From a virus, in IMG/VR virus record IMGVR_UViG_3300045391_001808, positions 1 to 54,317 of that record: a DNA stretch of 54,317 nt; one strand, given 5' to 3'. Position 1 is the stretch's first letter, and each line of letters begins with the position of its first letter. The position numbers and the translations under genes were made by a program. This document shows positions 29,077 to 49,446 of this stretch, one piece after another. Below the pieces are notes generated by a model. That model did not search any database. It was given only the letters and a program-made list of their open reading frames with translations, and was not told where the DNA came from.

Positions 29077-29082
29077 GCCTTA

Positions 29083-33016: not shown

Positions 33017-33657
33017 GGACCGGAGTGCTACTGTGCGACGGGCCGTCGACGCGGCTGCCCAACAAGTGCATGCTCCCGCAGAGGAACCGCTTCATGGTGT
33101 GTGAGTCCGGGCTGGGCTTCCTACTGAAGAGCGGCCACTGCGACGAGATCGTCGTGCCGGTGTGGAAGAATGGGCTGCTGAAGGACGTGATCCCGACTCG
33201 TGGCTGGCCTAGCAACGTCAGGCTACTGCCGGAGGCCACGCAGGACGGCCCGGTGGCGACAATTAAGCGTGCTGCCTACTGGGCTCGAGAGGGCCAGCTG
33301 CTGGTAGCGTACGGCGACAACTACTACTCGGGCGAGGAGCCCGAAGTCCCGAAGACTGCCAGTAACCGCGCCTGCGTGCGCCAGGGCCTCAGGCATACCG
33401 AGCAGCTGGACGCGTGTGTGAGTAGGCCGGCTGGGCCGCACTGGGCGCACCGCGACAGCCTAGAGAGGGAGCGCCTGATCGGCCACCTCGCTGGCTGGAT
33501 GCTCCTCGACGTCGCGTGTGTCCTGTCGTACAGCGGCAACGACGTCCTCGTCATGCTCAACACGTTCAAGGCGCTTCCAGAGGTGTACGGCAGTTCGTAC
33601 GACTGGTCCGATCTCGGCACGCCCGAGAGCTACAGGAGGCACTTATGCGGTCAGTAG
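33013..33657 (+). CDS. sugar-phosphate nucleotidyltransferase-like protein
   Basis: GVLLCDGPSTRLPNKCMLP parallels the GxLAGGxGTRLxPxT...PK signature. VAYGDNYY parallels the GDN motif. Confidence 0.55.
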   Translation: MRTGVLLCDGPSTRLPNKCMLPQRNRFMVCESGLGFLLKSGHCDEIVVPVWKNGLLKDVIPTRGWPSNVRLLPEATQDGPVATIKRAAYWAREGQLLVAYGDNYYSGEEPEVPKTASNRACVRQGLRHTEQLDACVSRPAGPHWAHRDSLERERLIGHLAGWMLLDVACVLSYSGNDVLVMLNTFKALPEVYGSSYDWSDLGTPESYRRHLCGQ

Positions 33658-34826
33658 TAGTGTGTAAGAGCGGCAGCGTGCTGGGAAGCACGTCCGCGTC
33701 GGGAGAGGCGGGCGAGACGGAGGGTGTGCTCAGGCACTTCGTCGGCCGTGGCGACGTGCGTGTCGTCTACTTCGGTCGCGTCAACGGGCAGCTGCCCGAC
33801 GGCGTGACCCATGTAGACCCTGACGTGGGTGGCGTGGACGAGTGGTGCACTGCAGCCAGGCAGCTCGAGGGCTTCGAGAACAACTGGGAGCGACTGCGGG
33901 ACTGCGAGGCGCTGTGCGTCATCAACGTGTGCGGCTACTCGCCGACGATGTCACACGTTGACAACCCACACGGTGCCCAGGTGCAGGCTGCCGCCATACG
34001 GTACAACGCGCCGATGCTGGACTTCTTGGAGAGGGCACGCGTCCCGAGAATCTGCGTAGTCACGGACCCCCGCCTGTACCCGAAGGACCAGGAGATGTCG
34101 CTCGGGTGGGAGTGGGCCCGGCCGCGGGCGCTACTCGACCAGTGGAGTCTCGACGCGAGGCAGGTCGTGGGCGGTGTGAAGTACGCACGACGCTCGGTGT
34201 ACGCTGCCTGCCAGTCGTGGGCGTGGCTGCCACAGCGTGAGAATTCCGGCACGGTGCCAGCCTGCGTGCTCGGTCACGCGCACGTAGAGGACGGGATCAA
34301 GAAGGGCAGCTGGGGTCCGTGGTGGGACATACTGCCGCGGCTCGATCAGTGGCCCGACTGGCTGTACGTCGCCGGGAAGGGCTGGGACAGTCCTGACTCC
34401 CGAGTATGTCAGAGACACTACAAGGGCTGCGTCAGCCAGCTCGAGATGACGAGGATGCTCACGTCTGCACGCTGCTGTCCTGTGGTGGCGCACACGCCAG
34501 GGTTCTACACGGGCAAGCCCCACTTCCTCATGAGCCACGGGTGCGTCCCGATCCTGTACGGGCGGGGCGAGAAGCACACGTGGGACCTGGAGGAGAGGTA
34601 CCTGTCGATCAGATCGCGTGCGCGAGTCACGAACTGGTACGAACTGCGAAGGGAGATAGAGGGTATGCAGGGCGACGAAGTATGGAAGTTCATGCAGGAC
34701 TGGTGGCGGAAGAAGCTGCAGCCTAAGTGGGAGAAGCTGGACGAGTGCGTGGACGAACTGCTCTCCGGTGCGGGTACCGAGAGCCCAGAGTGGTGGACCA
34801 AGTATGGAGGGTACAGGAAGTGCTGA
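33645..34826 (+). CDS. putative GT-B fold glycosyltransferase (weak resemblance to DNA beta-glucosyltransferase architecture)
   Basis: 393 aa from ATG 33645 (AGGAGG upstream). ICVVTDPRLYP and the C-terminal VVAHTPGFYTGKPHFLMSHGCVPILYG resemble a GT-B donor-binding segment. The assignment is tentative. Confidence 0.4.
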   Translation: MRSVVVCKSGSVLGSTSASGEAGETEGVLRHFVGRGDVRVVYFGRVNGQLPDGVTHVDPDVGGVDEWCTAARQLEGFENNWERLRDCEALCVINVCGYSPTMSHVDNPHGAQVQAAAIRYNAPMLDFLERARVPRICVVTDPRLYPKDQEMSLGWEWARPRALLDQWSLDARQVVGGVKYARRSVYAACQSWAWLPQRENSGTVPACVLGHAHVEDGIKKGSWGPWWDILPRLDQWPDWLYVAGKGWDSPDSRVCQRHYKGCVSQLEMTRMLTSARCCPVVAHTPGFYTGKPHFLMSHGCVPILYGRGEKHTWDLEERYLSIRSRARVTNWYELRREIEGMQGDEVWKFMQDWWRKKLQPKWEKLDECVDELLSGAGTESPEWWTKYGGYRKC

Positions 34827-34958
34827 TGCGACAGGACGTCGAGCTGTTTGAAGAGTACGTGAGGGCGCCTCACAGGGTCAGAACTAACACGGAGAAAGCA
34901 GCACTTACACAGGCGGTCGTACGACTCGCCGGTGTGGGTGCTGCAGTCGCGAGGTCGT

Positions 34959-35294
34959 ATGAACGAGTCGGCACGGACCAGGAAGCTGTGCGAGGGGCTG
35001 AGGAAGCTCAACGCGATGGTGTACGCAGCAGTGGCGGGCGAGAAGGGGACGAGTGGGTGGCCGGACCGCTATGTCCACCATCGTACGTGGCAGGGGTGGC
35101 TGGAGTTCAAGGACGGCACGAGGAAGTGCACGCCGCTGCAGCAGGAGATCATCCGAGGGATGAACGCCCGCTGTTGCGGAAGCGCGTACGTCGTAAGGCA
35201 CGGAGCTAACACGATCGAGAATCACGACGGTGAGGTGCTGGCGACGTTCGACGGCACCGCGACGTCACTACTGGGAGCTCTGGAGGACTTATGA
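34959..35294 (+). CDS. VRR-NUC domain nuclease
   Basis: GWPDRYVHHRTWQGWLEFKDGTRKCTPLQQEIIRGMNARCCGSAYVV follows the VRR-NUC pattern (G.PD...E.K....L...Q). Start ATG 34959 (the ORF opens at GTG 34932). Confidence 0.65.
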   Translation: MNESARTRKLCEGLRKLNAMVYAAVAGEKGTSGWPDRYVHHRTWQGWLEFKDGTRKCTPLQQEIIRGMNARCCGSAYVVRHGANTIENHDGEVLATFDGTATSLLGALEDL

Positions 35295-35539
35295 ATAAGA
35301 TAGTACTGACCGGAGTCGTGATGACCTTCATCACGCTGGCGGCGTTCATCATACTGGCGTTCACGATCGGATACGACGCCGGACGGCACTCGCGACACCG
35401 CGAGGTCGTAGACTACATCACCCGACAGAGCGTGCTGACACGACGACTGATACGGCTCGGCGACGAGCAGACGATGCGTGAGGTGGAGAAAGAATCCCTA
35501 ACACTGGAGAAAGACAATGGGTCAGATGGTAATTCCTAG
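35291..35539 (+). CDS. small membrane protein
   Basis: 82 aa. The N-terminal TM segment is IVLTGVVMTFITLAAFIILAFTIG. Confidence 0.55.
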   Translation: MNKIVLTGVVMTFITLAAFIILAFTIGYDAGRHSRHREVVDYITRQSVLTRRLIRLGDEQTMREVEKESLTLEKDNGSDGNS

Positions 35540-36383
35540 GACGTACCTGCTGGGCGTGACGCAGCCCGACCGCGACGAGCTGCTGCGGTACCTGCGAGAG
35601 ACTGGACAGGAAGAGTTCATGAGGCAGTTCGAGGAGGCAGAGCAGGAGGTGGGCGGGGCGCTGTGTCTCGTCAGCTTCTACGCCAAGCTGTGCTACAAGT
35701 CGCTGGTGCTCGGTAAGAACAGCAACGTCACCGCGACGCGAGACATCCTTGAGAATCTCACAGGATGTCTCGCGCAGGGGCACGGGTCCGTCTTCGAGCA
35801 CGTGACGCTGAACTTCGTGACGACGAACTGCTCGCGGGTGTTCACGCACGAGCTCGTACGACATCGCGCGGGCACGGCGTTCTCGCAGACGAGCGGGCGG
35901 TACGTAAGCATCGACTCGCTGGACTTGGTGCTGCCGCCAGAGCTGACACGCGACACGCCCTGCGAGTGGTGTCGTGGCGAGGGTACGGAAGAAGGGTGCG
36001 ACACTAGGTGTCGCGCGTGTGACGGTCTCTGCACACTCGACAAGGTGTACGAGAGGGCCAGGTCAGACATCGAGATCGTGCTGCAGAACCTGCGAATGGC
36101 GACGGTGCCCGAGCATGCAGACTTCGCGACCAAGAAGCGCCTCACGTCTGCCATACGACGGCTCGCGCCGAACGGGCAGGCCAACGAGATCGGGTGGTCT
36201 GCCAACGTGCGGGCGCTGCGACACATCATGGAGATGCGCACGTCGCCCGTCGCAGAGTGGGAGATGCGGCAAGTCTTCAACGACGTGTACGACATCGTCG
36301 CCGCACGCTGGCCACTGATGCTGCACGGCGCTGAGGTCACTCATGAGGGTGGCCTCATCGCTGTGGAGGGACTTGGAGTATGA
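35517..36383 (+). CDS. thyX: flavin-dependent thymidylate synthase
   Basis: The ThyX signature is HELVRHRAGTAFSQTSGRYV (RHR...SQxSxRY). GHGSVFEHV and ANVRALRHIMEMR are also present. Confidence 0.85.
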   Translation: MGQMVIPRTYLLGVTQPDRDELLRYLRETGQEEFMRQFEEAEQEVGGALCLVSFYAKLCYKSLVLGKNSNVTATRDILENLTGCLAQGHGSVFEHVTLNFVTTNCSRVFTHELVRHRAGTAFSQTSGRYVSIDSLDLVLPPELTRDTPCEWCRGEGTEEGCDTRCRACDGLCTLDKVYERARSDIEIVLQNLRMATVPEHADFATKKRLTSAIRRLAPNGQANEIGWSANVRALRHIMEMRTSPVAEWEMRQVFNDVYDIVAARWPLMLHGAEVTHEGGLIAVEGLGV

Positions 36384-36601
36384 GGTGGTTCGACGTCTCG
36401 CTGCCCGGCGTGGCCGGTCCGGTGGTAGGTCGCGAGCTTGCGAAGGGGATGGTCGAGCTGAGGATAGGCACGTGGGTGCGCCTCACCGTCACGAAGCGTT
36501 TCCTGCAGGACAGCGGCGCCCGGGCCACCGGGTGGCGGGACGAGCCTGGAGAGTGGCGTGGCGTTCACGCTACACTGATACGACTGCCAGAATGGGTGTG
36601 A
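36380..36601 (+). CDS. hypothetical protein
   Basis: 73 aa with an ATGA overlap with thyX. Confidence 0.45.
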   Translation: MRWFDVSLPGVAGPVVGRELAKGMVELRIGTWVRLTVTKRFLQDSGARATGWRDEPGEWRGVHATLIRLPEWV

Positions 36602-36602
36602 C

Positions 36603-36935
36603 ATGAAAGACCTAATCGAACAGGATGGCGAGTTTTACGTGGCTACTGGGGAAGTGCGAAAACCAAAGAGAGGCGAATGGTTTTCAAGCCAGCCAGATAA
36701 GTGGCTGTTGATGTACGACGTAGACGCAGAGGCGACACGCGAATACCAAGTCTACCACGAGCTCGACAAGCAGACCGTGAAGTTTGTGCTGGACTATAAG
36801 CCGGAAGGCGTGTCGTTGACATTGAGGGAGTACTTAAGAAATTCGTCAAAAGATATGACACCTTATGCACACGACCCGTATCTCAGGCAATGGGCAACCT
36901 ACATGCTCGACGCACTCGAACGATTGGAGAAGTAA
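36603..36935 (+). CDS. hypothetical protein
   Basis: 110 aa. This is the start of a lower-GC stretch of small genes. Confidence 0.6.
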   Translation: MKDLIEQDGEFYVATGEVRKPKRGEWFSSQPDKWLLMYDVDAEATREYQVYHELDKQTVKFVLDYKPEGVSLTLREYLRNSSKDMTPYAHDPYLRQWATYMLDALERLEK

Positions 36936-36939
36936 ACCG

Positions 36940-37113
36940 ATGGGACCAACATTCTTGATGACGGTTTGGTGTGGCATGAGCATTATGTCGATAAAGTGTT
37001 TTTTGAAAACGGACGCCGGCCATGCGTATGCGGAAGCGTACTGGCTTGTGCTTTCGGCGTTTGCTTTAAGCAATGCAGTTGCGTGGGCTGTCAGAATGAG
37101 CAAGGAGAAGTAA
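36940..37113 (+). CDS. small membrane protein
   Basis: 57 aa (MGPTFLMTVWCGMSIM...LVLSAFALSNAVAWAV). The start lies within the repeated junction GGAGAAGTAAACCGATGG. Confidence 0.45.
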   Translation: MGPTFLMTVWCGMSIMSIKCFLKTDAGHAYAEAYWLVLSAFALSNAVAWAVRMSKEK

Positions 37114-37117
37114 ACCG

Positions 37118-37234
37118 ATGGACAAAACATATCGCGTGAAGCTGCTGGATTTTGTGAAGCTTGCTGACGGCCACTGGGTGGCACAAACTGCCTTGGTCCG
37201 ATACGGATATTTGCGTTTCCCGACCAATTGGTAA
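37118..37234 (+). CDS. very small hypothetical protein
   Basis: 38 aa (MDKTYRVKLLDFVKLADGHW...), below the ORF-track cutoff. It starts in the second copy of the junction repeat, which supplies GGAG. Confidence 0.35.
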   Translation: MDKTYRVKLLDFVKLADGHWVAQTALVRYGYLRFPTNW

Positions 37235-37267
37235 TGCTCGTAATGAATTAACGAGATTGGAGAGCGT

Positions 37268-37438
37268 ATGAAAGTTACTGTGACGTGGCTGGACGGCAGC
37301 AAGCAGAGCTTCCTGGCTGCCGACGAGTACGACGAGGACCCGGTGCACAACCGGGCCACCTTCTACCTCGCCGAGAGTGGGAAGCCTGTCGTCGAGGTGA
37401 ATCTCGAGGCCGTGAGGTTTATCTACTTCGAGTATTGA
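37268..37438 (+). CDS. small hypothetical protein
   Basis: 56 aa (MKVTVTWLDGSKQSFLAADEYDEDPVHNRATFYLAESGKPVVEVNLEAVRFIYFEY). GGAGAG lies upstream. The stop overlaps the -35 box of the next promoter. Confidence 0.45.
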   Translation: MKVTVTWLDGSKQSFLAADEYDEDPVHNRATFYLAESGKPVVEVNLEAVRFIYFEY

Positions 37439-37463
37439 CACCGGGAACTCTGCAGGTTATAAT
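37435..37463 (+). promoter_or_regulatory. consensus sigma70 promoter
   Basis: TTGACA (37435-37440), 17-nt spacer, TATAAT (37458-37463). Confidence 0.8.
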
Positions 37464-37753
37464 AGGTGCATGGAAATGCAAGCGATATCAGGATGTGTTG
37501 CACAAGTGTACCTGGTCGCGGAGAAGTTAAAAAATTACACGATGCAAATGATATATGGTGACAGTTCTATATACTACTACTACTACTACTACTACTACAA
37601 AGGTCTTTTTACCTATACAGTTCTCTTCAGAGACTGTTTGAATTGAATTCATATCGATTTCATTTGCATAGTGTCGAATTTTGACTTTTGGGCGGCTCGG
37701 TACACTTGAGCTGCACTTGTGAGTTTCGCTTGCATCATTAGGAGATCCGTAGA
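37464..37753 (+). ncRNA. long structured 5' leader / candidate regulatory RNA upstream of the Zn-ribbon-sigma operon
   Basis: AT-rich, with no ORF carrying an RBS. There are three nested inverted repeats: 37476-37485/37726-37735 (10 bp), 37501-37508/37714-37721 (8 bp) and 37542-37551/37660-37669 (10 bp). They enclose (TAC)9. Confidence 0.5.
37572..37598. repeat. (TAC)9 microsatellite
   Basis: Nine perfect tandem TAC units lie in the non-coding leader. The same TAC-based unit builds the early leader cassette. Confidence 0.95.
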
Positions 37754-37897
37754 ATGAAGAAAGAACTACCAGAAGACAGAAGATGCCCTGTCTGCAACAG
37801 GAAGATAAGCTCTCGCAGTAGGTGGGCAGTGAAGCGGCCTATCCCAGTCTGTCGTAGGTGCGCGAGGTCTGGAGCAGGGGAGGCTGTCGTCCGATGA
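37754..37897 (+). CDS. small zinc-ribbon protein
   Basis: 47 aa (MKKELPEDRRCPVCNRKISSRSRWAVKRPIPVCRRCARS...). GGAG lies 9 nt upstream. It is below the ORF-track cutoff. Confidence 0.55.
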   Translation: MKKELPEDRRCPVCNRKISSRSRWAVKRPIPVCRRCARSGAGEAVVR

Positions 37898-38355
37898 CGC
37901 GAAAATATGATGCGACGAAGAGGCGCGAGGACGCGGCGATCCGAAAGGCGCGGCAGGCGATGGAGTTCCTCGAGCGGATGGAGCGCCGCGAGCGGGTGAG
38001 AGCTCGCAGGAGGCCACGGCCCGAGGTGCCCGAGGACTACAGGTGCCCGAGGTGCGGGAAGACCCGTCTGCGACGCAGGCAGTGGCGGCTGGCCGAGGAC
38101 GGTAGCACCGTGTGCGTGACCTGCAGCAGGCAGCCGAGACCGCTGCCGCCAGGATGTGTCTGCCCGAGGTGCCAGAGGAGACTGCCGCGGCGTGAGCGGT
38201 GGGACATGCGCAGCGAGCCGCTCGTGTGCAGGCGCTGCTCGGCCGAGAGGAAGGAAGCTATGGAGGTACTCAGTGATGTCAGGACTTCAGTGGCTGGAGG
38301 AGAATCCCAGAGCAGTCCGATGGCTGTTGAGGAAGTACCCGAGCCACATGCATGA
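37894..38355 (+). CDS. double zinc-ribbon protein, Arg-rich
   Basis: ATGA overlap at 37894. It has two more copies of the CPxC...RW...VCxxC module (YRCPRCGKTRLRRRQWRL...VCVTC and CVCPRCQRRLPRRERWDM...VCRRC). Confidence 0.6.
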   Translation: MTRKYDATKRREDAAIRKARQAMEFLERMERRERVRARRRPRPEVPEDYRCPRCGKTRLRRRQWRLAEDGSTVCVTCSRQPRPLPPGCVCPRCQRRLPRRERWDMRSEPLVCRRCSAERKEAMEVLSDVRTSVAGGESQSSPMAVEEVPEPHA

Positions 38356-38740
38356 CGACCTGTGGGGCGTGTGCGTGGATCGCGCCGAGGCGATCATGGC
38401 GACGTGGGACGGCACGAAGGGTGCGACGATGGGCTATCACATGGTCAAGAACCTGCGGTGGTACATGTGGAAGTGGGTGCGCCGCAGGCAGCGTGACGCA
38501 GAGCGCCATCCCGAGAACTCGGAGCGCGTGGGGTCTACATACGTAGCTCCTGACACGCTCGAGCACAGTGACGAGGTGAGGTCGGTCATGGACCGCCTCA
38601 CGCCGTACGAGCGGCACATCGTGGTGCTGCACGCGGTAGACGGCATGAGCTTCGAGCAGGTCGCCGAGCTCGTGCACAGCAGTAAGAACACCGTGAGGCT
38701 GCAGTACCTGGCAGCCGTGGAGAAAGCAAGATGCCGATAG
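38276..38740 (+). CDS. ECF-like sigma factor
   Basis: Region 4 HTH is LTPYERHIVVLHAVDGMSFEQVAELVHSSKNTVRLQYLAAVEKAR. A region 2-like segment is YHMVKNLRWYMWKWVRRRQR. ATG 38276 has GGAGG 9 nt upstream. Confidence 0.75.
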   Translation: MSGLQWLEENPRAVRWLLRKYPSHMHDDLWGVCVDRAEAIMATWDGTKGATMGYHMVKNLRWYMWKWVRRRQRDAERHPENSERVGSTYVAPDTLEHSDEVRSVMDRLTPYERHIVVLHAVDGMSFEQVAELVHSSKNTVRLQYLAAVEKARCR

Positions 38741-39366
38741 TAAGTGACGACTGGGTCCTGTTCACACCGACGAAGTGCGGCACTACATCGCTCGAGGGAC
38801 TGCTGACCGACAAGCTCCGCGTGGCAGTGAAGGACGTGCCCAGACACAGGATGATCCTGAGAGGGCAGGAGCTCCACAAGCGACGGTTCATGGTCGTGAG
38901 GCACCCGCTCGAGCGGTGGTGCTCGATGTTCTGGGCCATCGACCGCTGGACGGCGAACGGCAGCCACCCCTTCATGTGGGAGTTTGCCGGGCAGTACGAG
39001 GGCTTCGCACGGGAGTGGCTCAGACGGCGCGCGGAGCGGCCGTACGACTCGTGGCAGAAGGACCTGACCATATACACGAACAACAACACGGAGAACGCGC
39101 TGCTGTGCAAGCCCGAGAAGGTGTTCAGGTTCGAGACAATGTTAGACTTCTTACTCTACGAGATCGCGACCTTCCATCCTTACTGCGACGGCGAGGACTG
39201 GGCTTTCGCTAAGAGGGCCGAGTGGTGTACCATGCTCCCGCACCGCAACAAGACTGCCGACAGGCCGTCGGTAGAGGAGACGCTGGCCAAGATACCACAG
39301 GACCTTCTCGCAGGTATTATGGACTGGGCGAGACCGGACCTGGAGCAGTGGTATGACCCCTCGTAG
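38731..39366 (+). CDS. sulfotransferase family protein
   Basis: 5'-PSB-like VLFTPTKCGTTSLEGLL and 3'-PB-like FMVVRHPLERWCSMFW are present. The C-terminal LPHRNKT...DLEQWYDP follows the pattern of carbohydrate sulfotransferases. Confidence 0.7.
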   Translation: MPIVSDDWVLFTPTKCGTTSLEGLLTDKLRVAVKDVPRHRMILRGQELHKRRFMVVRHPLERWCSMFWAIDRWTANGSHPFMWEFAGQYEGFAREWLRRRAERPYDSWQKDLTIYTNNNTENALLCKPEKVFRFETMLDFLLYEIATFHPYCDGEDWAFAKRAEWCTMLPHRNKTADRPSVEETLAKIPQDLLAGIMDWARPDLEQWYDPS

Positions 39367-40078
39367 ACCGGCGCACGGCCCACCCTCCTCGTGGTTCACG
39401 GGACCGGCGCCTCCTAAATTCCAGTGTGAGGCTACACGTCACAACGGGCTGCGGTGCCGCAGGTGGAAGAGGCCGAGGGAGGACGGGCTCGGACACTATC
39501 GCGTGTGCAGCTACCACCTCGCACGCACGCCGCACGCAGGTAAGACTCACACTAAGCTCCTTCCCATGAACTACAAGAGGTACCTCAAGCCGGCACTGAC
39601 CCGGGCGCTCGACGAGATGCTCAACACGTCGCCCACAGAGCAGCTCGCGCTCTTCGAGGAGCTCGCGCTGATTCGCGACGCGGCGGGACAGATCGTGGCG
39701 GGCTACTCGGACATACGCGAGAGACTAGACGCGCAGCCTGACAACGAGAAGTTGAAGGAGGCAGCGATCATGTCCGGGGCGCTGATGCGCGACGCGCTCA
39801 AGGAGGTGATCACCGCCTGCGAGTCCGCAGCCCGCGTGCAGGCCACGAGCAAGGAATCAGTATCAGCAGCCCACCTGAACTTCTTCGTCGAGCAGATCGT
39901 GCAGTGCGCGTACCAGAGCTTCGGAGACGATGTGAAGGTCGACGAGTTCATCAAGCGCGTACGCACCCAGATAAGAGTACCGACCAACCACGTCGAGGGC
40001 ACTACGATCACTCCCGACGCTGACGTCATCGAGATGGACGAGACCGTACCTGATGAACATCAACATAGCGACGCGTGA
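39353..40078 (+). CDS. hypothetical protein with Cys/His N-terminus (possible small terminase, very tentative)
   Basis: 241 aa. CEATRHNGLRCRRW...YRVCSYH is followed by a helical segment (EQLALFEELALIRDAAGQIV). No firm family was recognised. Confidence 0.5.
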   Translation: MTPRRPAHGPPSSWFTGPAPPKFQCEATRHNGLRCRRWKRPREDGLGHYRVCSYHLARTPHAGKTHTKLLPMNYKRYLKPALTRALDEMLNTSPTEQLALFEELALIRDAAGQIVAGYSDIRERLDAQPDNEKLKEAAIMSGALMRDALKEVITACESAARVQATSKESVSAAHLNFFVEQIVQCAYQSFGDDVKVDEFIKRVRTQIRVPTNHVEGTTITPDADVIEMDETVPDEHQHSDA

Positions 40079-40739
40079 CTGGGCCCTCGAGAAGCTTGCC
40101 CAGGTGAAGCGTGCCGAGCCCTGGCACGACATGAGGTACGCCATGAGCCTGGGCTACATGGTGGCGAACCTTCCCGTGCCGCCTCGCAGGATCCTCGACG
40201 TGGGCGGGCCGTCACCGATGGTGCCGCTACTCGCCGAGATGTGGGGCGTGGAGGTAAGCAGCACTCCCGACGCGGACCTTCGCGACTGGTCGCCTGCTGC
40301 CGACGAGTACGACCTTGTGACGTGCTGCGAGGTCCTAGAGCACATTCACGACCTGCCCACGACCGATCCTGACAAGCGCGCGTGCTGGACCGGCAGCGGG
40401 CAGAAGAAGCTACTCGAGGACTGCTGCCGGGCACTCAAGCCGGGCGGCCACCTGTTCCTCACCACGCCGAACGCCACGTCGCTGCGAGTCCTGCAGAACG
40501 TAGCACGCGACGAGCACCCACGCATGTACGACCCTCACGTGCGCGAGCTCCGCGTGTGCGAGGTAGAACGCCTCGTCCCACAGGGCGGGCTCAAGATCGT
40601 AGAGTGCCGCGCCTGGTCCGTGTGGGACGACCTCGGCGTGCGCGACCACATGAACCAAGTGCTGCAGGCCGTGCGCCTTCTGGGTGGCGATCCTGCCGGG
40701 CGCAACGACGACATCATACTCTTCGCGAGGAAACTTTGA
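40053..40739 (+). CDS. class I SAM-dependent methyltransferase
   Basis: Motif I is RILDVGGPSP. DLVTCCEVLEHIHD and ALKPGGHLFLTTPN are also present. Confidence 0.75.
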   Translation: MNINIATRDWALEKLAQVKRAEPWHDMRYAMSLGYMVANLPVPPRRILDVGGPSPMVPLLAEMWGVEVSSTPDADLRDWSPAADEYDLVTCCEVLEHIHDLPTTDPDKRACWTGSGQKKLLEDCCRALKPGGHLFLTTPNATSLRVLQNVARDEHPRMYDPHVRELRVCEVERLVPQGGLKIVECRAWSVWDDLGVRDHMNQVLQAVRLLGGDPAGRNDDIILFARKL

Positions 40740-41683
40740 GCTTCAGACTGCTACCGTTCCCACCACACTGCGCAGGAGTCCACCGTTCGGGCTGGCCGTA
40801 CGTGCACAGCCACCTGATGGACTACTGCTCGGACGATCCAGAGGCCACGCTGCTCGACGACTTCGTCGATGCGTCGTTCAGCTACCGTCACGTGCCAGAG
40901 CCGCACAGCTCGCCGTGGGTGGGGATCTTCCATCATCCAGCCCGAGTACACAGCCCGCTCGCGAGCGACAGGTCGTCGGTAGTGACGCGCCTGCAGCGGG
41001 ACCGGATGTTCCGACAGTCCGTGCGTCACCTCAAGGGAGCCGTGTGCCTCTGCCCGCAGCTCGAGCCCGTGCTGCGCGAGTGGCTGGGCGTGCCGGTACT
41101 CGTCACGCACCACCCGACCGAGACAGATGTCACACAGTTCGACATAACGCAGTTTGACGCGACCGAGCGCCCGCCGCTGTTCCAGTGTGGGTTCTTCCTT
41201 CGCGACACTCGCTTCGTGTACCACCTCGACGTGCCGCGGTACGAGAAGGCACGCAGCCGTCCGTACACAGAGTGGGCAGTGAGGCGCGACGCGCAGCTCA
41301 AGTACGCGCTGGCACGCGGCGGCCCACCGCAGAGCAGCGCCGAGGTGAGGGAGTTCGACCGCCTGCCCGACCACAAGTACGACGAGGTCATGGCGTCGTC
41401 CATCGTGGTCACGCGACTGTTCGGTGCAGCGGCCAACAACGTCGTCGTGGAGTCGCTGGCCCGCAACTCGCCACTGCTCGTCAACCGCCTGCCCGAGGTC
41501 GAGTACTACCTGGGAAGTGGCTACCCACTGTTCTTCCGAGACCACGACCACGCGCAGCAGCTCCTTCGCGACTGGTCTCGCGTCGAGGCAGCGCACCAGT
41601 ACATGGCAGAGTTCGAGGCACCGTGGCTCGACGCGGCAGTCTTTGCTGCTGAGGTCGCCGACTTCGTCAGGAGGGTCGCATGA
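40736..41683 (+). CDS. glycosyltransferase-like protein (GT-B C-terminal-like)
   Basis: The TTG start at 40736 (TTGA overlap, GAGGA upstream) is provisional. IVVTRLFGAAANNVVVESLARNSPLLVNRLPEVEYYLGSGYPLFF resembles a GT donor-binding segment. The upstream part of ORF 40382 is Arg/Pro junk. Confidence 0.45.
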   Translation: MSFRLLPFPPHCAGVHRSGWPYVHSHLMDYCSDDPEATLLDDFVDASFSYRHVPEPHSSPWVGIFHHPARVHSPLASDRSSVVTRLQRDRMFRQSVRHLKGAVCLCPQLEPVLREWLGVPVLVTHHPTETDVTQFDITQFDATERPPLFQCGFFLRDTRFVYHLDVPRYEKARSRPYTEWAVRRDAQLKYALARGGPPQSSAEVREFDRLPDHKYDEVMASSIVVTRLFGAAANNVVVESLARNSPLLVNRLPEVEYYLGSGYPLFFRDHDHAQQLLRDWSRVEAAHQYMAEFEAPWLDAAVFAAEVADFVRRVA

Positions 41684-42696
41684 TAGAGCTCGACGGAATC
41701 ACTCTTGACTTCAATCCCGACCAGCCACGAGACGATCACGGCCGCTTCGGTGAGGGTGGCGGCGGTGGCAACGTCGACGTGTCCAAACCTTGGACACCCG
41801 AGAAAGGAATGACGCTATACCACGCGTCAGAGAGCACCATCGATAACTTGTCGCCCGACAGGCCGATGTGGTTCACGCCGTCGCGCACGGAGGCAAGTGC
41901 GTACCTGGATACTGCGAGAGCGTCTAGTCCCAGCGGCACGCAGTACGCCGCCAAGCTAGAGACGACTAAGATAGCTACGCAGAGCGATGTAGACAGCCTG
42001 GCGAAGGAAGTGTTCGGTGACAACTTTTCTTATACGATGCTTGACCCGTCCGTAGGCGAGTACCCCAAGGCAAAAGTAAAGTCTTTCATCAAGACGCTCA
42101 AGTCTCGAGGCTTCGACGGGGTCATACACAACGACTATTCTGCCGTTAACAGCAACAAGGACGCGTACACACTGGTCGTGTTCAACCCGAAGAAGGCCGT
42201 CAGTGACTTTAAGAAGAACAGCATGTCCCTGTCACTCGACGGGGTAGAGCTGGCCTTCGACCCTGAGGTCACACCTCGTGACAACGGTAAGTTCGCACCC
42301 GGCCTGCGAGGGATCGACGACCCGGGTGACGTGCAGGTGAGGGACCTCGACGAGGCGTCGAAGAACCGGCTCGACAAGTTGCTCACCACCGGCCGAACGC
42401 CGTTCCCACGCGTGAGCCGCGACGACCTGCCGCCCGTGACGAACAGCAAGTTCCGGTCAGAAGGTAAGGTCGAGGACGTGAAGGTAGCTGACCTTATCGC
42501 GACGCAGCAGACGATCGACCAGGCGCAGGTCGGACAGTTTACTGACAGGTACCTGCGGGACGTGGTGGGAGCTGACGACCCCGTGAAGGTACTACGCTGG
42601 AACGACAAGCTCTACCTGATCGACGGCCACCACAGGGCTACTGCCTCCTGGGTAACCGGCGACGAGACTATAAAGGCTACAGTGGTGGACCGATGA
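41680..42696 (+). CDS. two-module protein with C-terminal ParB/Srx-like nuclease domain
   Basis: The C-terminus LYLIDGHHRATASWV is the ParB-N DGHHR motif. AGGAGG lies upstream of the ATG. A duplicated ~24-aa leader occurs at residues 1-25 and 184-207. Confidence 0.7.
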   Translation: MIELDGITLDFNPDQPRDDHGRFGEGGGGGNVDVSKPWTPEKGMTLYHASESTIDNLSPDRPMWFTPSRTEASAYLDTARASSPSGTQYAAKLETTKIATQSDVDSLAKEVFGDNFSYTMLDPSVGEYPKAKVKSFIKTLKSRGFDGVIHNDYSAVNSNKDAYTLVVFNPKKAVSDFKKNSMSLSLDGVELAFDPEVTPRDNGKFAPGLRGIDDPGDVQVRDLDEASKNRLDKLLTTGRTPFPRVSRDDLPPVTNSKFRSEGKVEDVKVADLIATQQTIDQAQVGQFTDRYLRDVVGADDPVKVLRWNDKLYLIDGHHRATASWVTGDETIKATVVDR

Positions 42697-42881
42697 GATG
42701 GGCCGTGCTACTGCTCACATTCACGATCACGATCACGTTCTCGTGGGGCGAGCGGCCGGAACGTGTGTTGCCGGCCGCTCGCACAACCGACCGGTCTAAG
42801 ATGACGCTGGAGCAGTGGCTCGATACCTACTTCCCGACTAAGAGCATAAGTTACGAAGACGCAGAGATGTTCGGAGGCTAG
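42693..42881 (+). CDS. small hypothetical protein with hydrophobic N-terminus
   Basis: 62 aa with an ATGA overlap. Confidence 0.45.
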   Translation: MRWAVLLLTFTITITFSWGERPERVLPAARTTDRSKMTLEQWLDTYFPTKSISYEDAEMFGG

Positions 42882-42882
42882 C

Positions 42883-43098
42883 ATGGCTTGGTGGTGGATC
42901 GCATGTATCGTCGTCGCACTGTTCATATGGGCCTTCCTGACGGTCCTCAGCTACGGGGCACAGTGCATGATCCCGTCGGGTGGCAGTCTCAAGCGGGTCG
43001 CAGAAGACAGCCTCATATTCTTCTTCGTGTCACTGCTCGTCGTCTTCCCAGTCGCAGGCGCGTGCCGCGTCGTACACCTTCTGATCTTCGGGAAGTAG
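42883..43098 (+). CDS. small two-TM membrane protein
   Basis: 71 aa. The TM segments are WWWIACIVVALFIWAFLTVL and IFFFVSLLVVFPVAGA. Confidence 0.5.
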   Translation: MAWWWIACIVVALFIWAFLTVLSYGAQCMIPSGGSLKRVAEDSLIFFFVSLLVVFPVAGACRVVHLLIFGK

Positions 43099-44376
43099 AT
43101 GCTCACACGAGCCTGGACACCCCTGCGATACCACCCGCTGCAGAGGGCAGCGTGGACGACGGGCGCGCGCTTCGTCAACCTGGCCTGCGGGCGGGGTAGC
43201 GGTAAGACGGAACTCGCACGACGTCGCAGCATACGCATGCTGCCCGTCAAGAAGCCGTGGCCGAACCCGATGTACTTCTACGCGCTGCCTACCTACAACC
43301 AGGCGCGCCGCGTCGCGTGGCGCCCGTTGCTGGACCTCATCCCGCCCCACTGGATCAAGAAGGTGAACCAGTCGGAGCAGATGATCACCACGGTCTTCGG
43401 CAGCGAGCTCCACGTCGTGGGCATGGACAAGCCGCAGCGCATCGAGGGCTCGCAGTGGGACGGCGGCGTGATCGACGAGGCGTGCGACCAGAAGCCCGGC
43501 GCCTTCGACCGCAGCGTGCTGCCCGCGCTGTCGCATAAGAACGGGTGGTGCTGGAGGATCGGCGTGCCCAAGCGTGTAGGCAGCGGTGCCGGCGAGTTTC
43601 GCAAGGCCTTCGAGACTGCTGACGGCGTGGAGTCAGTGTCCTTCACCTGGCCCAGCGAGGACATTCTTAGCGAGAAGCAGCTGCGGTGGGCGCGTGAGAA
43701 CCTCGACCCGAAGGACTACAACGAGCAGTACCGCGCACGCTGGGAGGACGTCAGCGGCCTGATCTTCTACGCGTTCGACGAGGTGCAGAATGTCGACGCG
43801 AACATAAGCTACCGGCCCGACCTGCCGATCCTCGTGGGCAGCGACTTCAACGTGGACCCGATGTCGTGGGCTCTCGCCCAGCGTCCGGAGAAGCGAAAGC
43901 TCGACGTCTTCGACGAGGTGTTCATTCGCAACACGAACACACGCGAGGCCCTGGACTACCTTCACAAGAAGTACGAGCACCACAAGGGAGGCTGGGAGTT
44001 CTACGGCGACGCGACCTCGAAGAGTCGCAACACGCGCGCCTCGCAGAGCGACTACGCGCAGATCAAGAACGACAGGAGGTTCTACGGCGCGAAGGTGTTC
44101 TACCCTGACAGCAACCCTGCCCGGGCGAATCGCTTCGCCGCGTGTAACGCGATGTTCCTCAACGCGGACAACGAGCGCGCTTGCAAGATACACCCACGCT
44201 GCAAGCAGCTGATCGCCGATCTCACTACTCGTGCGTACGCACCGGGTACTACTGAACCAGACGACCACGGTGACATAGGACACATGACGGACGGGTTCGG
44301 GTATCTCGTGTACCGTCTCTTCCCGATCCGAGTAGCGATCAGCGCCACGCCCGGAGTCTACATATCTGATGGCTGA
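43099..44376 (+). CDS. terL: terminase large subunit
   Basis: Walker A is LACGRGSGKTELA and Walker B is GGVIDEACD. C-terminal nuclease acidic motifs are VGSDFNVDP and DDHGDIGHMTDGFGY. Confidence 0.85.
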   Translation: MLTRAWTPLRYHPLQRAAWTTGARFVNLACGRGSGKTELARRRSIRMLPVKKPWPNPMYFYALPTYNQARRVAWRPLLDLIPPHWIKKVNQSEQMITTVFGSELHVVGMDKPQRIEGSQWDGGVIDEACDQKPGAFDRSVLPALSHKNGWCWRIGVPKRVGSGAGEFRKAFETADGVESVSFTWPSEDILSEKQLRWARENLDPKDYNEQYRARWEDVSGLIFYAFDEVQNVDANISYRPDLPILVGSDFNVDPMSWALAQRPEKRKLDVFDEVFIRNTNTREALDYLHKKYEHHKGGWEFYGDATSKSRNTRASQSDYAQIKNDRRFYGAKVFYPDSNPARANRFAACNAMFLNADNERACKIHPRCKQLIADLTTRAYAPGTTEPDDHGDIGHMTDGFGYLVYRLFPIRVAISATPGVYISDG

Positions 44377-45694
44377 GAAGACGCTACCTCAAGTACTGAT
44401 CGCCCCGGGCATAATGACCGACGGCGAGCTGCCCGACTCGCACCAGAAGTACTACAAGACGTACCGCGAGATGCGGTCTGACCCGACGATCGCGCTTGCA
44501 CGCTTCCTGAGCGTCGCGCCGCTGGTAGTCTCTGGGTGGTCCTACGAGGCCAAGGACTGGGCGCCCGAGGGCGCGAAGGAGTTCGTCTCCGAGCAGATGG
44601 AGCGAGTGCGCATGAGACTGCTGAAGGCAGTCTTCGAGGGCTACATCGACTACGGCTGGTCACCCTTCGAGATCGTGTGGGGCGTGGACGACGACCTCAT
44701 GCAGGTGATCCAGGAGTTCAAGCCGCTCCTACAAGACTACACGACGATCCTGGTCGACGAGAAGACTGGCAGGATGCTCGGCCTAAGACAGGACCTGCTC
44801 GGTACGAACGTCGACCTGTACGCCGGAGAGTACCTCTGTATCGCTCTCGACGTAGAGGGCACGTACTGGTACGGCGACCCACTCATGGAGAACGTCCGTG
44901 AGATCGACAAGAAGTGGGAAGTCATCGAGGACGCTGCGTCGCGATACGACAAGAAGGTCGCGGGCTCGCACTGGGTCGTCCACTATCCCATGGGTACTTC
45001 ACTCGTGGATGGCGAGGAAATCGACAACTTCATCGTCGCCAAGAAGATACTGGCGTCGCTACAGTCCTCAGGTGCTGTGACGGTGCCCACGAAGCTGAAG
45101 CCGGAGAGCGACGACGTCGACGGGGAGAACGCGTGGAAGATCGAGCTGCTCAGCGACAGCGGGAACGCGCGAGCTGCGTTCGTTGACCGGCAGAAGTACC
45201 TCGACGCGCTCAAGGTCAGGGCGTTCGGGCTGCCGGAGCGTTCCGTACTCGAGGGCGAGTTCGGCACCAAGGCGGAAGCAGAGGCACACGGCAACTTTGC
45301 CATCGTGAACATGGAGATGCGGGCGCAGCTGGTCGTCGAGGACATCAACCGCAAGGCTGTCAACTTCATCCTCACGAACAACTACGGGCCCTACGCCCGC
45401 GACTCGGTCGTGATCGTGGCGAACCCGATCAAGGACGCGTCGCTCGCGTTCCTGAGAGACCTCTACAAGACCATGCTGACCGGGGACATGGGCGCGAGTG
45501 AGATCGCGACGATCGACACTGACACGATGAAGGAGAGGACGGGCGTCCCTAAGAAGCCCGACCCCATCATGACACTGTACGACGACATGCAGGTGGGTAC
45601 TACTCTGCCAGCTGACCCAACCTCAAGCATACAAGGTGACCCGTGGAGTGGAACACAACCACAATCATCGCCGCAGTACTTGCCGGCGTCCTAG
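44369..45694 (+). CDS. portal protein (DUF935/Mu gp29-like, tentative family)
   Basis: 441 aa immediately after terL with an 8-nt overlap. The size and N-terminal pattern (YREMRSDPTIALARFLSVAPL) support the call. Confidence 0.75.
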   Translation: MAEKTLPQVLIAPGIMTDGELPDSHQKYYKTYREMRSDPTIALARFLSVAPLVVSGWSYEAKDWAPEGAKEFVSEQMERVRMRLLKAVFEGYIDYGWSPFEIVWGVDDDLMQVIQEFKPLLQDYTTILVDEKTGRMLGLRQDLLGTNVDLYAGEYLCIALDVEGTYWYGDPLMENVREIDKKWEVIEDAASRYDKKVAGSHWVVHYPMGTSLVDGEEIDNFIVAKKILASLQSSGAVTVPTKLKPESDDVDGENAWKIELLSDSGNARAAFVDRQKYLDALKVRAFGLPERSVLEGEFGTKAEAEAHGNFAIVNMEMRAQLVVEDINRKAVNFILTNNYGPYARDSVVIVANPIKDASLAFLRDLYKTMLTGDMGASEIATIDTDTMKERTGVPKKPDPIMTLYDDMQVGTTLPADPTSSIQGDPWSGTQPQSSPQYLPAS

Positions 45695-45948
45695 TCCTTC
45701 TCAACAAGGGCACGCTCGTGGAGGCACTCAAGGCCTTCTGGGCCGCACTCACCGGGACCAAGCCGGCCGCTAAGACGCAGCTGGCCAGTACCGACACAGA
45801 GCTGCCAGCGGTCCAGGCACGACTGGACGCCGTCCGTCTGCTACAACAGTTCTACACGCAGGTCGACTGTCCCGAGGGCCTGGAGGCCACGCAGACCTGC
45901 CTAAACCACCTTCTGGACGACATGAAGCCCCATGAGCAAGCAAGCTAA
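45643..45948 (+). CDS. membrane-anchored hypothetical protein
   Basis: 101 aa with a GTG start. The N-terminal TM segment is TTIIAAVLAGVLVLL. Confidence 0.45.
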   Translation: MEWNTTTIIAAVLAGVLVLLNKGTLVEALKAFWAALTGTKPAAKTQLASTDTELPAVQARLDAVRLLQQFYTQVDCPEGLEATQTCLNHLLDDMKPHEQAS

Positions 45949-46384
45949 CTTACTAGCCGTCGCTGCGATCGTCGGACTCTTCGTGTGGTCGCAGCCACAG
46001 CTTCGCGAGAAAGTCGTCCCCACGACCGTCACGCCGTCGGTAACACCGACCGAGTCGATGAAAGACGCGGTCGCGCCGATTACTGCGGCCGTGAAGGGGC
46101 ATAAGGACGTCGCGGCCGTGGGCTCTGCCTACTACCGAGACGTGGCAGCATCAGTGTCAGCGTTCCCAGAGCGCTTCGACTCGATCGTGGAGATCGAGAC
46201 CTTCCTCAACAACTCCGGGCAGCTGCTGTCCAAGCTCGCACCAGCAGACAATTCTGCCGTTCGCAAGGCGACAGCGGACGCGATGACCAAGATCCTCGGG
46301 TCGGACGAGACGAAGAAGCTCGACCCGACGACTGTCAAGAACTGCTTCGAGACTATATCTTGGGCGTACGCCCAGGCGGGATGA
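45932..46384 (+). CDS. membrane-anchored hypothetical protein
   Basis: 150 aa. The N-terminal TM segment is LLAVAAIVGLFVW. Confidence 0.55.
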   Translation: MSKQANLLAVAAIVGLFVWSQPQLREKVVPTTVTPSVTPTESMKDAVAPITAAVKGHKDVAAVGSAYYRDVAASVSAFPERFDSIVEIETFLNNSGQLLSKLAPADNSAVRKATADAMTKILGSDETKKLDPTTVKNCFETISWAYAQAG

Positions 46385-46387
46385 CGA

Positions 46388-48042: not shown

Positions 48043-48109
48043 GTACTATAAGTACATGTACAAGCATCTCTGGTTTAAGAGAAAGTTCCGCAAACTAAAG
48101 GAGCTCTTT

Positions 48110-48313: not shown

Positions 48314-48316
48314 ACC

Positions 48317-49122: not shown

Positions 49123-49138
49123 GATCGACGCGGCTGTC

Positions 49139-49441: not shown

Positions 49442-49446
49442 GAGTC

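Follow-up and report, generated by a model that had tools for sequence, protein, structure and literature searches.

An uncultured phage, whose complete ~54-kb genome is the window analysed here (1..54317), carries genes for a short sulfotransferase, a methyltransferase and a GT-B-fold glycosyltransferase among its packaging genes, and members of this GT-B family also occur in other phages, in giant viruses and within glycan clusters of bacteria. The recurrent adjacency of GT-B and sulfotransferase genes in many other viruses suggests that viruses may make sulfated sugars. For this phage, we tentatively favour a late-expressed set making a methylated and sulfated glycoconjugate with a virion protein as the preferred acceptor, a reading to which we give slightly less than an even chance.

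A variable cargo slot between the terminase genes

The genes lie in a tightly packed run on the + strand that opens with a phage sigma-70-family factor (region 4; 38156..38740) and ends at the portal gene; each of its ten genes overlaps the next or lies 0-1 nt from it. Because the enzyme genes share this run of overlapping frames with the packaging genes, the two groups of proteins would probably be made together. A preliminary description of this DNA had placed the enzymes between a sigma factor and packaging genes, and these flanks are confirmed (sigma factor, large terminase and portal), as is the presence of three open reading frames on the + strand at 38731..39366, 40053..40739 and 40736..41683. 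It had also treated 38731-41683 as a contiguous tailoring set, which we do not find, since the region includes a gene absent from that description (39353..40078, + strand) whose 241-aa product is probably the small terminase and not a tailoring enzyme. This assignment comes from position, a homologue lying directly upstream of the large terminase gene in relatives without cargo, and the product combines a Cys/His zinc-ribbon-like motif at its N-terminus with a middle part predicted to be helical and a C-tail that is acidic and conserved.

The gap between the probable small terminase gene and that for the large terminase (TerL; 43099..44376, + strand), which forms its downstream border, is a cargo slot, and the glycosyltransferase and methyltransferase genes lie here, inside the packaging block and in overlapping frames. 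Its contents differ among relatives: the slot is empty in several and otherwise holds a sulfotransferase (alone in L109/L110), the methyltransferase with GT-B, or an unrelated GT2 with a methyltransferase. The last arrangement, a GT2 gene plus GT2::Methyltransf_24, is non-homologous to the window pair and is read as functional convergence. Sister phages whose slots are filled by analogous but unrelated sets provide a natural experiment for identifying the acceptor. Comparison with relatives thus identifies the set as variable cargo of the slot and not as a fixed module. Within the lineage the sulfotransferase gene moves independently of the GT-B gene, lying beside the DNA polymerase gene in L097 and near ThyX in L002. 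The empty slot in several relatives also means that the genes could be separate morons, an observation that counts against a cooperating set.

Among 50,697 GenBank phage records, megablast gave no match to the region and tblastn none to either the GT-B protein or the sulfotransferase, and the closest cultured-phage terminases are only ~33% identical to that of this phage. The host probably belongs to the Planctomycetota; the earlier guess of a planctomycete-like host gained support from a scan of genome contigs using an alignment of 18 closer sequences as the query. A gene pair downstream (46388-47428 and 47419-48042), suspected of glycan functions from its co-occurrence with GT-B in 10 loci, was rejected as such, since it carries the Q/C/H/NSW motifs of the papain-like cysteine peptidase family; it is probably structural.

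The three enzymes

The first gene (38731..39366, + strand) starts 10 nt before the end of the sigma factor gene, and its 211-aa product is assigned by motifs and family profile to the PAPS-type sulfotransferases, in a Sulfotransfer_2-like family whose members are short (~190 aa). The earlier sulfotransferase call therefore stands, with both PTKCGTTSL and VRHPLERWCS found in the product. Searched alone against Sulfotransfer_2, the protein scores below the Pfam cut-off of 22 bits (E=0.13, 12.8 bits). An exhaustive HMMER search recovered 81 relatives of ~170-230 aa, largely viral or metagenomic, and 34 of 78 family members match Sulfotransfer_2 (E<=0.01; best 2e-11) and 20 of the 78 Sulfotransfer_1. 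The family profile matches solved sulfotransferases including 3rnl (9e-7), SULTs and HS 2-OST, with both PAPS-binding motifs aligned. Six residues (K15, H39, R57, P59, R62 and S65) vary little or not at all in the alignment of 78 relatives. K15, conserved in at least 90%, lies in the 5'-PSB loop TPTKCGTTS, which aligns to the 3rnl loop; the 3'-PB motif VRHPLERWCS, in which R57 is invariant and P59, R62 and S65 are at least 90% conserved, aligns with the equivalent motif of several solved sulfotransferases. H39 (at least 90% conserved) occupies the right place in the order, between the two PAPS motifs, and is the candidate catalytic base. An AF2 model built from a 3-sequence alignment was poor (pLDDT 46.7), which, with the low Pfam score, weighs against the reading favoured here.

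The class I SAM-dependent methyltransferase predicted earlier at 40053..40739 (+ strand, 228 aa) is upheld by a match to Methyltransf_23 (E=9.5e-14, 51.9 bits, cut-off 27), in which residues 25-183 cover profile positions 3-162 of 164, the Rossmann-like core; the closest NCBIfam model, UbiG, falls far under its cut-off. Motif I is atypical, since the subfamily keeps LDVGGPSP (the form found here), LEIGGRS or LECGGQS and not plain GxGxG. Members of this subfamily adjoin GT-B genes in L002/3, L004, L007 and L009. Four members of the lineage keep the pair with its 4-nt overlap despite GT-B protein identities of only 38-51%, and the pair also occurs in the unrelated contig L009.

The product of 40736..41683 (+ strand, 315 aa) matched nothing in Pfam, NCBIfam or PHROG, and PF13524 is present in one of 116 homologues. 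Its AF2 model (pLDDT 96, pTM 0.92) predicts two Rossmann-like domains with an inter-domain cleft, and Foldseek aligns it over its whole length (~300-360 columns, probability 1.0) with SenB (1e-9), SdgB, GlgM, BshA and MshA. The earlier mention of a GT-B-like donor segment can therefore be widened: by its predicted structure this is a complete GT-B glycosyltransferase fold, from a family without a Pfam model. The TTG start at 40736 is taken as correct because H16, R17, G19 and W20, which the first ATG would exclude, do not vary among 61 homologues. H66, G152, D216, P246, G260, Y263 and F303 are likewise invariant in the family; E239 and R243 are at least 90% conserved. At the sequence level the family profile reaches only E=0.018 against SenB.

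Recurrent linkage of the GT-B family to sulfotransferases

The GT-B family is encoded on 230 IMG/VR contigs. A sulfotransferase-like gene lies within 5 kb of it (<=5 kb) in 33 of the 80 loci examined, and of 40 loci, 26 have the nearest sulfotransferase gene abutting GT-B (<=10 bp) and 35 have it downstream in the same orientation. When GT-B sequences are de-replicated at 60% identity, 23 of 59 clusters keep the link. The linked enzymes fall into three unrelated families, namely the window type (15 loci), a ~240-aa type (18) and the Stf0 type (9); the ~240-aa sulfotransferase-like family was counted apart from FkbM methyltransferases, one fusion protein joining both. A sulfotransferase::FkbM-methyltransferase fusion adjoins the GT-B gene in L068. 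The GT-B domain is itself fused to GT25, GT4, GT2, GT32-type and polysaccharide pyruvyltransferase domains and, in P0065, to the O-methyltransferase domain Methyltransf_24; O-methyltransferases are fused or adjacent to it in P0065, L009, L020, L068 and L078. TPR-fused bacterial homologues have GT4, GT2, sulfotransferase and epimerase genes as neighbours, and the best BFVD matches come from giant-virus members of the family. A 255-285-aa family encoded upstream of GT-B in 25 loci had no match in PDB. The proposal that the enzymes share one glycan-tailoring function is supported by the sulfotransferase linkage (33/80), the O-methyltransferase links and the GT25 fusions.

These patterns bear on whether the genes are unrelated morons gathered at an insertion hot spot, with the sulfotransferase, methyltransferase and GT-B enzyme acting on different substrates (small molecule, RNA or protein). 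The varied slot content and the occurrence of the sulfotransferase without a GT-B gene and at other genome positions would fit such an origin, as would the generic nature of Methyltransf_23, for which no NCBIfam model comes near its cut-off, and the pairing of GT-B with a Stf0-type enzyme in nine loci, the named Stf0 member being one that sulfates free trehalose. However, the methyltransferase/GT-B pair is kept in four lineage members and in unrelated L009, GT-B linkage recurs with three non-homologous sulfotransferase families, and fusion proteins unite these activities. We regard independent morons as unlikely.

In L005 a cassette of GT4, GT-B, pyruvyltransferase, Sulfotransfer_3 and GT2 genes follows the tail genes, next to transposases, and the same five genes recur in L088, where the examined stretch shows no evident phage genes. 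The L005 cassette sits where lysogenic-conversion genes usually sit, an observation that counts against a virion acceptor. Both occurrences would fit remodelling of the host envelope, in which a surface polysaccharide, lipid-linked precursor or glycoprotein would be modified during infection, by analogy with the O-antigen-modifying genes of temperate phages, either to block superinfection or to keep progeny off debris. The variable-cargo character of the genes, the position of the GT25::sulfotransferase gene (described below) after the tail genes and the status of GT25 as an LPS-core family are in keeping with this. Against it, no integrase or lysogeny gene was detected in the genome, which encodes its own replication machinery; nor was there any sign of a flippase, polymerase or polyprenyl-phosphate transferase; and the giant-virus members of the GT-B family cannot act on a bacterial envelope. 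We consider envelope remodelling unlikely.

Other candidate glycan genes and the nucleotide-metabolism module

A sulfotransferase fusion noted earlier at 12853 is confirmed as a 435-aa GT25::Sulfotransfer_3 protein (12853..14160, + strand) encoded at the end of the tail module. The entire fusion is kept in the relative L102, and in L043/45/48 a GT25 domain of this type is joined to a GT-B family member; the fusion is likely to partner the enzymes of the terminase region. The repertoire is smaller than the three to four glycosyltransferase-like proteins first proposed, only two glycosyltransferase domains being verified. The 393-aa protein encoded at 33645-34826 was considered as a further glycosyltransferase and is unsupported, being unrelated to the GT-B family by hhalign; with its 20 homologues it had no Pfam, PDB or PHROG match. 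Nor could the sugar-activation role given to 32028-34826 be confirmed beyond motif-level and homologue-level hints; these genes belong to a nucleotide-metabolism module, and their role may instead be in modifying DNA. The number of nucleotide-sugar or PAPS synthesis genes verified in the genome is zero, which counts against the favoured reading.

The phage probably makes a modified cytosine, which opens DNA as an acceptor and counts against a virion protein. Its ThyA-family enzyme, aligned to B. subtilis ThyA, has Asp (LGLPYD) at the position of the thymidylate synthase Asn (PFN), the residue that specifies dUMP, and its match to the CMP 5-hydroxymethylase MilA scores about as well as the best thymidylate synthase matches while covering more of the protein. 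Beside it are encoded a MazG-like NTP pyrophosphohydrolase, a thymidylate-kinase-like P-loop kinase (a weak match) and a C5-cytosine-methylase-like protein, and the genome has a separate ThyX. 5-Hydroxymethylcytosine (hmC) or a related base might replace cytosine and be glycosylated by one or both glycosyltransferases, as in T-even phages, with the methyl- and sulfotransferases tailoring the DNA sugar or being unrelated. The T4 alpha- and beta-glucosyltransferases are GT-B enzymes, and the sulfotransferase genes beside DNA polymerase (L097) or near ThyX (L002) in relatives would also suit a DNA acceptor. By contrast, neither the giant-virus members and TPR-fused bacterial proteins of glycan clusters nor the fusions with polysaccharide-type domains (pyruvyltransferase, GT2, GT4) fit such an acceptor; none of the 50 best PDB fold matches to the GT-B protein is a T4 enzyme (GT63/GT72), and there is no sequence match to these; the window protein is acidic (pI 6.3); and we know of no sulfated or methylated DNA sugar. 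DNA hypermodification, too, is an unlikely account. A bolder proposal, in which the glycosyltransferases act on hmC of the phage genome and the sugar is then decorated by the sulfo- and methyltransferases, seems very unlikely. If true, sulfated or methylated glycosyl-DNA would be a hypermodification without known precedent. In a milder variant the virion would bear a sulfated glycan coat; no sulfated glycoconjugate of bacterial-virus make would precede it, and it might mimic the sulfated-polysaccharide substrates of polysaccharide-scavenging planctomycete hosts.

Proposed function of the enzyme set

The analysis shows the folds and families of the enzymes, the order of their genes and the recurring linkage and fusions; for a methylated and sulfated glycoconjugate, we infer the following cooperation, its donors, timing and acceptor included. 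The methyltransferase and GT-B genes would be carried as accessory cargo between the probable small and the large terminase genes, with the short PAPS sulfotransferase gene just upstream of the small terminase gene in the same packed run. The soluble GT-B enzyme would transfer a sugar from a host nucleotide-sugar to a cytoplasmic acceptor, and the GT25 half of the fusion encoded at 12853 would add another. The methyltransferase would then O-methylate the glycan with SAM as donor and the two sulfotransferase domains would O-sulfate it with host PAPS, the end product being a methylated, sulfated glycoconjugate. By analogy a virion protein is the most likely acceptor, although the host envelope and DNA with modified cytosine are serious alternatives; the virion protein is ranked first because mycobacteriophage sets of O-methyltransferase and glycosyltransferase genes in structural operons and the capsid glycans of giant viruses are analogous. 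Against a virion acceptor, Phage_cap_E spans essentially the whole major capsid protein (residues 12-328 of 333), which has no C-terminal extension, and no Ser/Thr-rich tails were found on structural proteins; other sites may accept the glycan. Neither such tails nor isoelectric points discriminate between acceptors.

Sulfotransferase genes are repeatedly listed among viral auxiliary metabolic genes, and to our knowledge nobody has yet shown a phage to make sulfated sugars. Their function in phage genomes has recently been called unclear (PMC10580990). The linkage described here ties viral sulfotransferases to a partner, an unnamed family of GT-B glycosyltransferases, and makes viral glycan sulfation testable with three small soluble enzymes. 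If viral glycans are sulfated by the viruses themselves, the chemistry of the virion surface would be altered, with relevance to adsorption, stability and evasion of immunity or defence, and sulfated glycoconjugates would join the products of phage-encoded metabolism.

Comparison with known systems

In mycobacteriophages of clusters O and F, glycosyltransferase genes in tandem come after an O-methyltransferase gene (Freeman et al., 2023, via PMC11600133). The systems are alike in that a phage O-methyltransferase and soluble glycosyltransferases are encoded among structural and packaging genes. The mycobacteriophage enzymes modify phage proteins within the cytoplasm (PMC11600133), as is proposed for those described here. 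[quoted passage not shown]

With T-even hmC glucosylation the phage shares a cytosine-type ThyA homologue, an NTP pyrophosphohydrolase, a dNMP-kinase-like protein and a GT-B enzyme, but the window glycosyltransferases are without detectable GT63/GT72 similarity and the context of the family elsewhere is polysaccharide-like. The short sulfotransferase resembles the carbohydrate sulfotransferases of the Sulfotransfer_2, Stf0 and NodH types in its 5'-PSB and 3'-PB PAPS motifs, the conserved His between them and glycosyltransferase genes as genomic associates, whereas those enzymes have 250-300 aa against ~190-210 aa here, where the match lies below the Pfam threshold. The GT-B protein shares the two-Rossmann-domain fold of GT4-type enzymes (SenB, SdgB, BshA, MshA and GlgM; TM ~0.6-0.67), and its donor-site segment NNVVVE..R..P aligns with SenB; sequence identity is ~10-15%, no glycosyltransferase Pfam model is matched, the N-terminal HRSGW motif is specific to the window family and the second Glu of E-x7-E is missing there.

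Giant viruses produce methylated glycans of their own without relying on the secretory pathways of the host, using the multi-domain glycosyltransferase/methyltransferase proteins of chloroviruses and the carbohydrate gene clusters of CroV and klosneuviruses, a machinery for which we know of no described link to sulfation. They encode the same GT-B family as the phage, often fused to pyruvyltransferase or other glycosyltransferase domains, but infect eukaryotic hosts, whereas the window enzymes are single-domain proteins encoded in a terminase-gene slot.

Genes between the sigma factor and the packaging module

The preliminary description placed three enzyme genes in the interval 38731-41683. 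Their identities are upheld, but the interval contains four genes, all on the + strand, the one at 39353-40078 having gone unmentioned. The first gene (38731-39366) encodes a 211-aa protein carrying the sulfotransferase motifs quoted for it, PTKCGTTSL and VRHPLERWCS. Scanned alone, this protein is under threshold against Sulfotransfer_2 (E=0.13), and just three close homologues were found among 5.8 billion proteins. An exhaustive profile search identified 81 relatives of ~170-230 aa, whose alignment keeps K15, H39, R57, P59, R62 and S65 with few or no exceptions; these residues represent the 5'-phosphosulfate loop for PAPS, a His that is a candidate for the catalytic residue, and the 3'-phosphate motif. 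When relatives were scanned singly, 34 of 78 matched Sulfotransfer_2 and 20 of 78 matched Sulfotransfer_1. The family profile matches solved structures, including 3rnl (9e-7), plant and animal SULTs and heparan-sulfate 2-O-sulfotransferase, and both PAPS motifs align in the matches to solved sulfotransferases. On the basis of the family profile and the conserved motifs, we assign the 211-aa protein, which is sub-threshold by itself, to the PAPS sulfotransferase superfamily, of which it is a short representative; its predicted structure was too poor to inform.

The gene at 40053-40739 encodes a class I SAM methyltransferase of 228 aa (Methyltransf_23, E=9.5e-14) with an unusual motif I. It is followed by a gene (40736-41683) for a 315-aa protein that has more than 116 homologues but gave no match in family-library searches. 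An N-terminal HRSGW motif is invariant in this family, confirming the TTG start of the 315-aa protein. The AF2 model (pLDDT 96) predicts a complete GT-B fold, rather than just the GT-B-like donor segment initially recognised, and is nearest to the GT4-type enzymes SenB, SdgB, GlgM, BshA and MshA; a weak profile match covers the donor-site segment of SenB. The remaining product (39353-40078, 241 aa) begins with a Cys/His motif resembling a zinc ribbon, is predicted to be helical in its centre and ends in a conserved acidic tail. Homologues lie directly upstream of the large terminase in five related contigs (L100, L101, L107, L111 and L118), and this position and architecture make it a probable small terminase.

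Both flanks were verified as well: a sigma factor gene precedes the interval, and the terminase and portal genes follow it. Between the GT-B and terminase genes are an ART/ParB-like protein and then two small hydrophobic proteins, and the ten genes from sigma factor to portal overlap or are 0-1 nt apart. The 338-aa protein encoded at 41680-42696 weakly matches the ADP-ribosyltransferase domain of polyvalent proteins in its N-terminal part and a ParB-like nuclease / VapB-like domain in its C-terminal part, and its gene is at the same place as a GT61 gene in contig L002.

The gap between the terminase genes is a cargo slot

Comparison with contigs whose terminases are 48-64% identical to that of the window reveals a cargo slot between the two terminase genes, with five kinds of content. 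The slot is empty in the five contigs listed for the small terminase, contains a short sulfotransferase of the window's family in L109 and L110, and contains a methyltransferase and GT-B pair of the window's type in the window, L002/L003, L004 and L007, with the GT61 gene next after the GT-B gene in L002. In L103, L104, L106 and L116 it is occupied by a non-homologous set of GT2, a GT2::Methyltransf_24 fusion and a 1104-aa protein, and in L108 and L112-L115 by about 0.9-1.4 kb of unidentified sequence. The non-homologous set (931-7991 in L103) also includes an E1_FCCH-like protein and is analogous, not homologous, to the window cargo. The sulfotransferase gene occurs in several members at differing positions: it follows the sigma factor in the window and L001, is near ThyX in L002 and follows the DNA polymerase in L097. 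Since slot content varies and the sulfotransferase changes position, the interval is not a fixed module, contrary to the tailoring set first proposed. The presence of two unrelated glycosyltransferase and methyltransferase sets in the same slot of sister phages argues that a methylated glycan is important to this lineage. Two relatives have CsrA-family genes in the same accessory region: in L001 (931-1170) between the sigma factor and sulfotransferase, and in L004 (9810-10004) just ahead of the GT-B gene.

Association of the GT-B family with sulfotransferases

The GT-B family was found in 230 IMG/VR contigs, among them jumbo phages, T4-like contigs and giant-virus bins, and is absent from GenBank phage records. 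Searched against predicted viral structures, it is most similar to multi-domain proteins from klosneuviruses, Pyramimonas orientalis virus and CroV. A sulfotransferase-like ORF is present within 5 kb of the GT-B gene in 33 of 80 fetched loci, and such ORFs belong to three different families: the short family of the window (15 loci), a ~240-aa family whose profile matches in the PDB are almost all sulfotransferases (18 loci) and the Stf0 type (9 loci). The nearest such ORF directly adjoins the GT-B gene in 26 of 40 loci and lies downstream on the same strand in 35 of 40, with just one more than 5 kb away; the link is kept in 23 of 59 clusters de-replicated at 60% identity. GT4 genes, radical-SAM/SPASM genes and an uncharacterised family also recur as neighbours. 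In 25 loci (L011, L013, L018, L020, L021 and 20 further IMG/VR loci) the gene directly preceding the GT-B gene encodes an uncharacterised protein of 255-285 aa, whose family matches nothing in Pfam or the PDB; radical-SAM/SPASM genes lie downstream in 23 loci.

Fusions join the GT-B domain to GT25, GT4, GT2, GT32-type or polysaccharide pyruvyltransferase domains and, in homologue P0065, to an O-methyltransferase domain. A sulfotransferase::FkbM fusion adjoins the GT-B gene in L068, separate FkbM genes are present in L020 and L078, and a cassette of GT4, GT-B, pyruvyltransferase, Sulfotransfer_3 and GT2 genes is found after the tail genes in L005 and again in L088. Homologues from bacteria have TPR repeats at the N-terminus. 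Their clusters in Desulfoferula mesophila (L086) and Cronbergia sp. (L087) contain GT4, GT2, sulfotransferase, epimerase, ABC-transporter, PqqD, NTP_transf_5 and ScmC-like genes, which may constitute a pathway for a glycosylated and sulfated peptide or an exported glycan. Three features jointly support the conclusion that the GT-B enzyme, sulfotransferases and methyltransferase act on one glycan: non-orthologous sulfotransferases replace one another as partners, the domains are fused, and the genes are tightly packed in an operon.

The GT25::Sulfotransfer_3 fusion (12853-14160) proved real and is kept in relative L102, and the GT25 domain fused to GT-B in L043, L045 and L048 is of the same type, linking the two window loci. 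The count of three to four glycosyltransferase-like proteins was not confirmed: only two glycosyltransferase domains are verified, and Pfam scans of the other sizeable ORFs in the window found none. The proposed sugar-activation genes (32028-34826) have weak motif- or homologue-level support. They encode a protein with a kinase motif, HGDLxxxN, of the aminoglycoside-phosphotransferase type (32028-32672), a small HAD protein (32669-33016), a protein weakly resembling nucleotidyltransferases (33013-33657), whose L097 homologue matches NTP_transf_3, and a 393-aa protein (33645-34826) whose 20-member family has no detectable relatives of known function. Because several relatives (L097 8464-11179; L108, L109, L112 and L114) keep this block between their DNA ligase and ThyX genes, we place it in the nucleotide-metabolism module; its role may be in sugar activation or in modifying DNA.

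The phage and its predicted host

The window is from a tailed phage, with all convincing genes on the + strand. An identical 69-bp direct repeat (1-69 and 54249-54317) indicates that the 54,317-bp contig is a circular assembly of a complete, circularly permuted genome of about 54,248 bp. It encodes a large terminase, portal, Mu-F-like protein, lambda-E-type capsid protein, tape-measure protein and head-decoration-like protein, together with an SNF2 helicase, DNA ligase, primase-helicase and family-A polymerase; no integrase was found in the genome. The closest cultured terminases (cyanophage S-2L and YuA-like Pseudomonas phages) are only ~33% identical, and megablast against GenBank phages gave no match. 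The suggestion of a planctomycete-like host gains sequence-level backing from the closest genomic GT-B homologues, six of eight being in Planctomycetota MAGs (Pirellulales, Planctomycetaceae, Isosphaerales, Pirellulaceae, Gemmataceae), from a 'PLA2' bin tag on one metagenomic homologue and from a compatible G+C content of 60%.

Two gene families of the window are associated with inteins or intein-like sequences. The polymerase gene (24691-27612) contains an intein that carries an HNH endonuclease and spans about residues 393-706, and the intein-less L097 homologue aligns to both flanks. The genes at 46388-47428 and 47419-48042 represent a family of papain-like cysteine peptidases, with conserved Q, C, H and NSW motifs, and its partner. 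In the window they lie within an insertion of ~9.5 kb that separates the portal gene from the Mu-F-like gene, and the pair recurs in 10 viral contigs at a distance of a few kb from the GT-B gene. Three relatives have large intein-like insertions (L076 13507-15429, L051 8088-10151, L069 11058-13070), exactly at the catalytic Cys in L076 and L051.

Candidate acceptors and comparison with known systems

We rank a virion protein first as acceptor. The genes lie in the packaging/structural block of a phage without detectable lysogeny genes, TPR-fused bacterial homologues suggest protein recognition, and the family occurs in giant viruses, whose glycans decorate virions. A precedent comes from mycobacteriophages, whose capsid and tail-tube proteins are modified through O-methyltransferase and glycosyltransferase genes (PMC11600133). 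Counting against a virion-protein acceptor, the window capsid protein has no extension and no Ser/Thr-rich tail. A PAS-domain protein (49890-50396) and a 1133-aa protein (50255-53656) are encoded between the portal and head-morphogenesis genes; the latter has a Ser/Thr-rich stretch and is a possible glycan acceptor. Further candidates among the virion proteins are the capsid protein (3351-4352), the decoration-like protein (2898-3302) and putative products of the tail region such as that of 5608-6477. Modification of the host envelope is a rival reading, suggested by the location of both the L005 cassette and the GT25::Sulfotransfer_3 gene after tail genes, as for lysogenic-conversion genes.

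Phage DNA carrying modified cytosine is another possible acceptor. The ThyA homologue (22998-23984) has Asp (LGLPYD) where thymidylate synthase has the dUMP-specifying Asn, and matches the CMP hydroxymethylase MilA about as well as thymidylate synthase/ThyA. Together with genes for a MazG-like NTP pyrophosphohydrolase (21261-21863), a C5-cytosine-methylase-like protein (21533-23074) and a thymidylate-kinase-like P-loop kinase (23911-24507), this suggests that the DNA probably contains 5-hydroxymethyl- or 5-methylcytosine, making its glycosylation possible. A separate ThyX gene is present at 35517-36383. The gene set at 21261-24507 is T4-like with respect to cytosine modification.

Sets of glycosyltransferase and methyltransferase genes in phages are known, and so are sulfotransferase 'AMGs' of viruses. 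No phage module of glycosyltransferase and sulfotransferase genes was found in the literature that could be searched, and the role of phage sulfotransferases has been described as unclear (PMC10580990; PMC8290583). Beside these known systems, the window provides a concrete enzyme trio that is open to testing.
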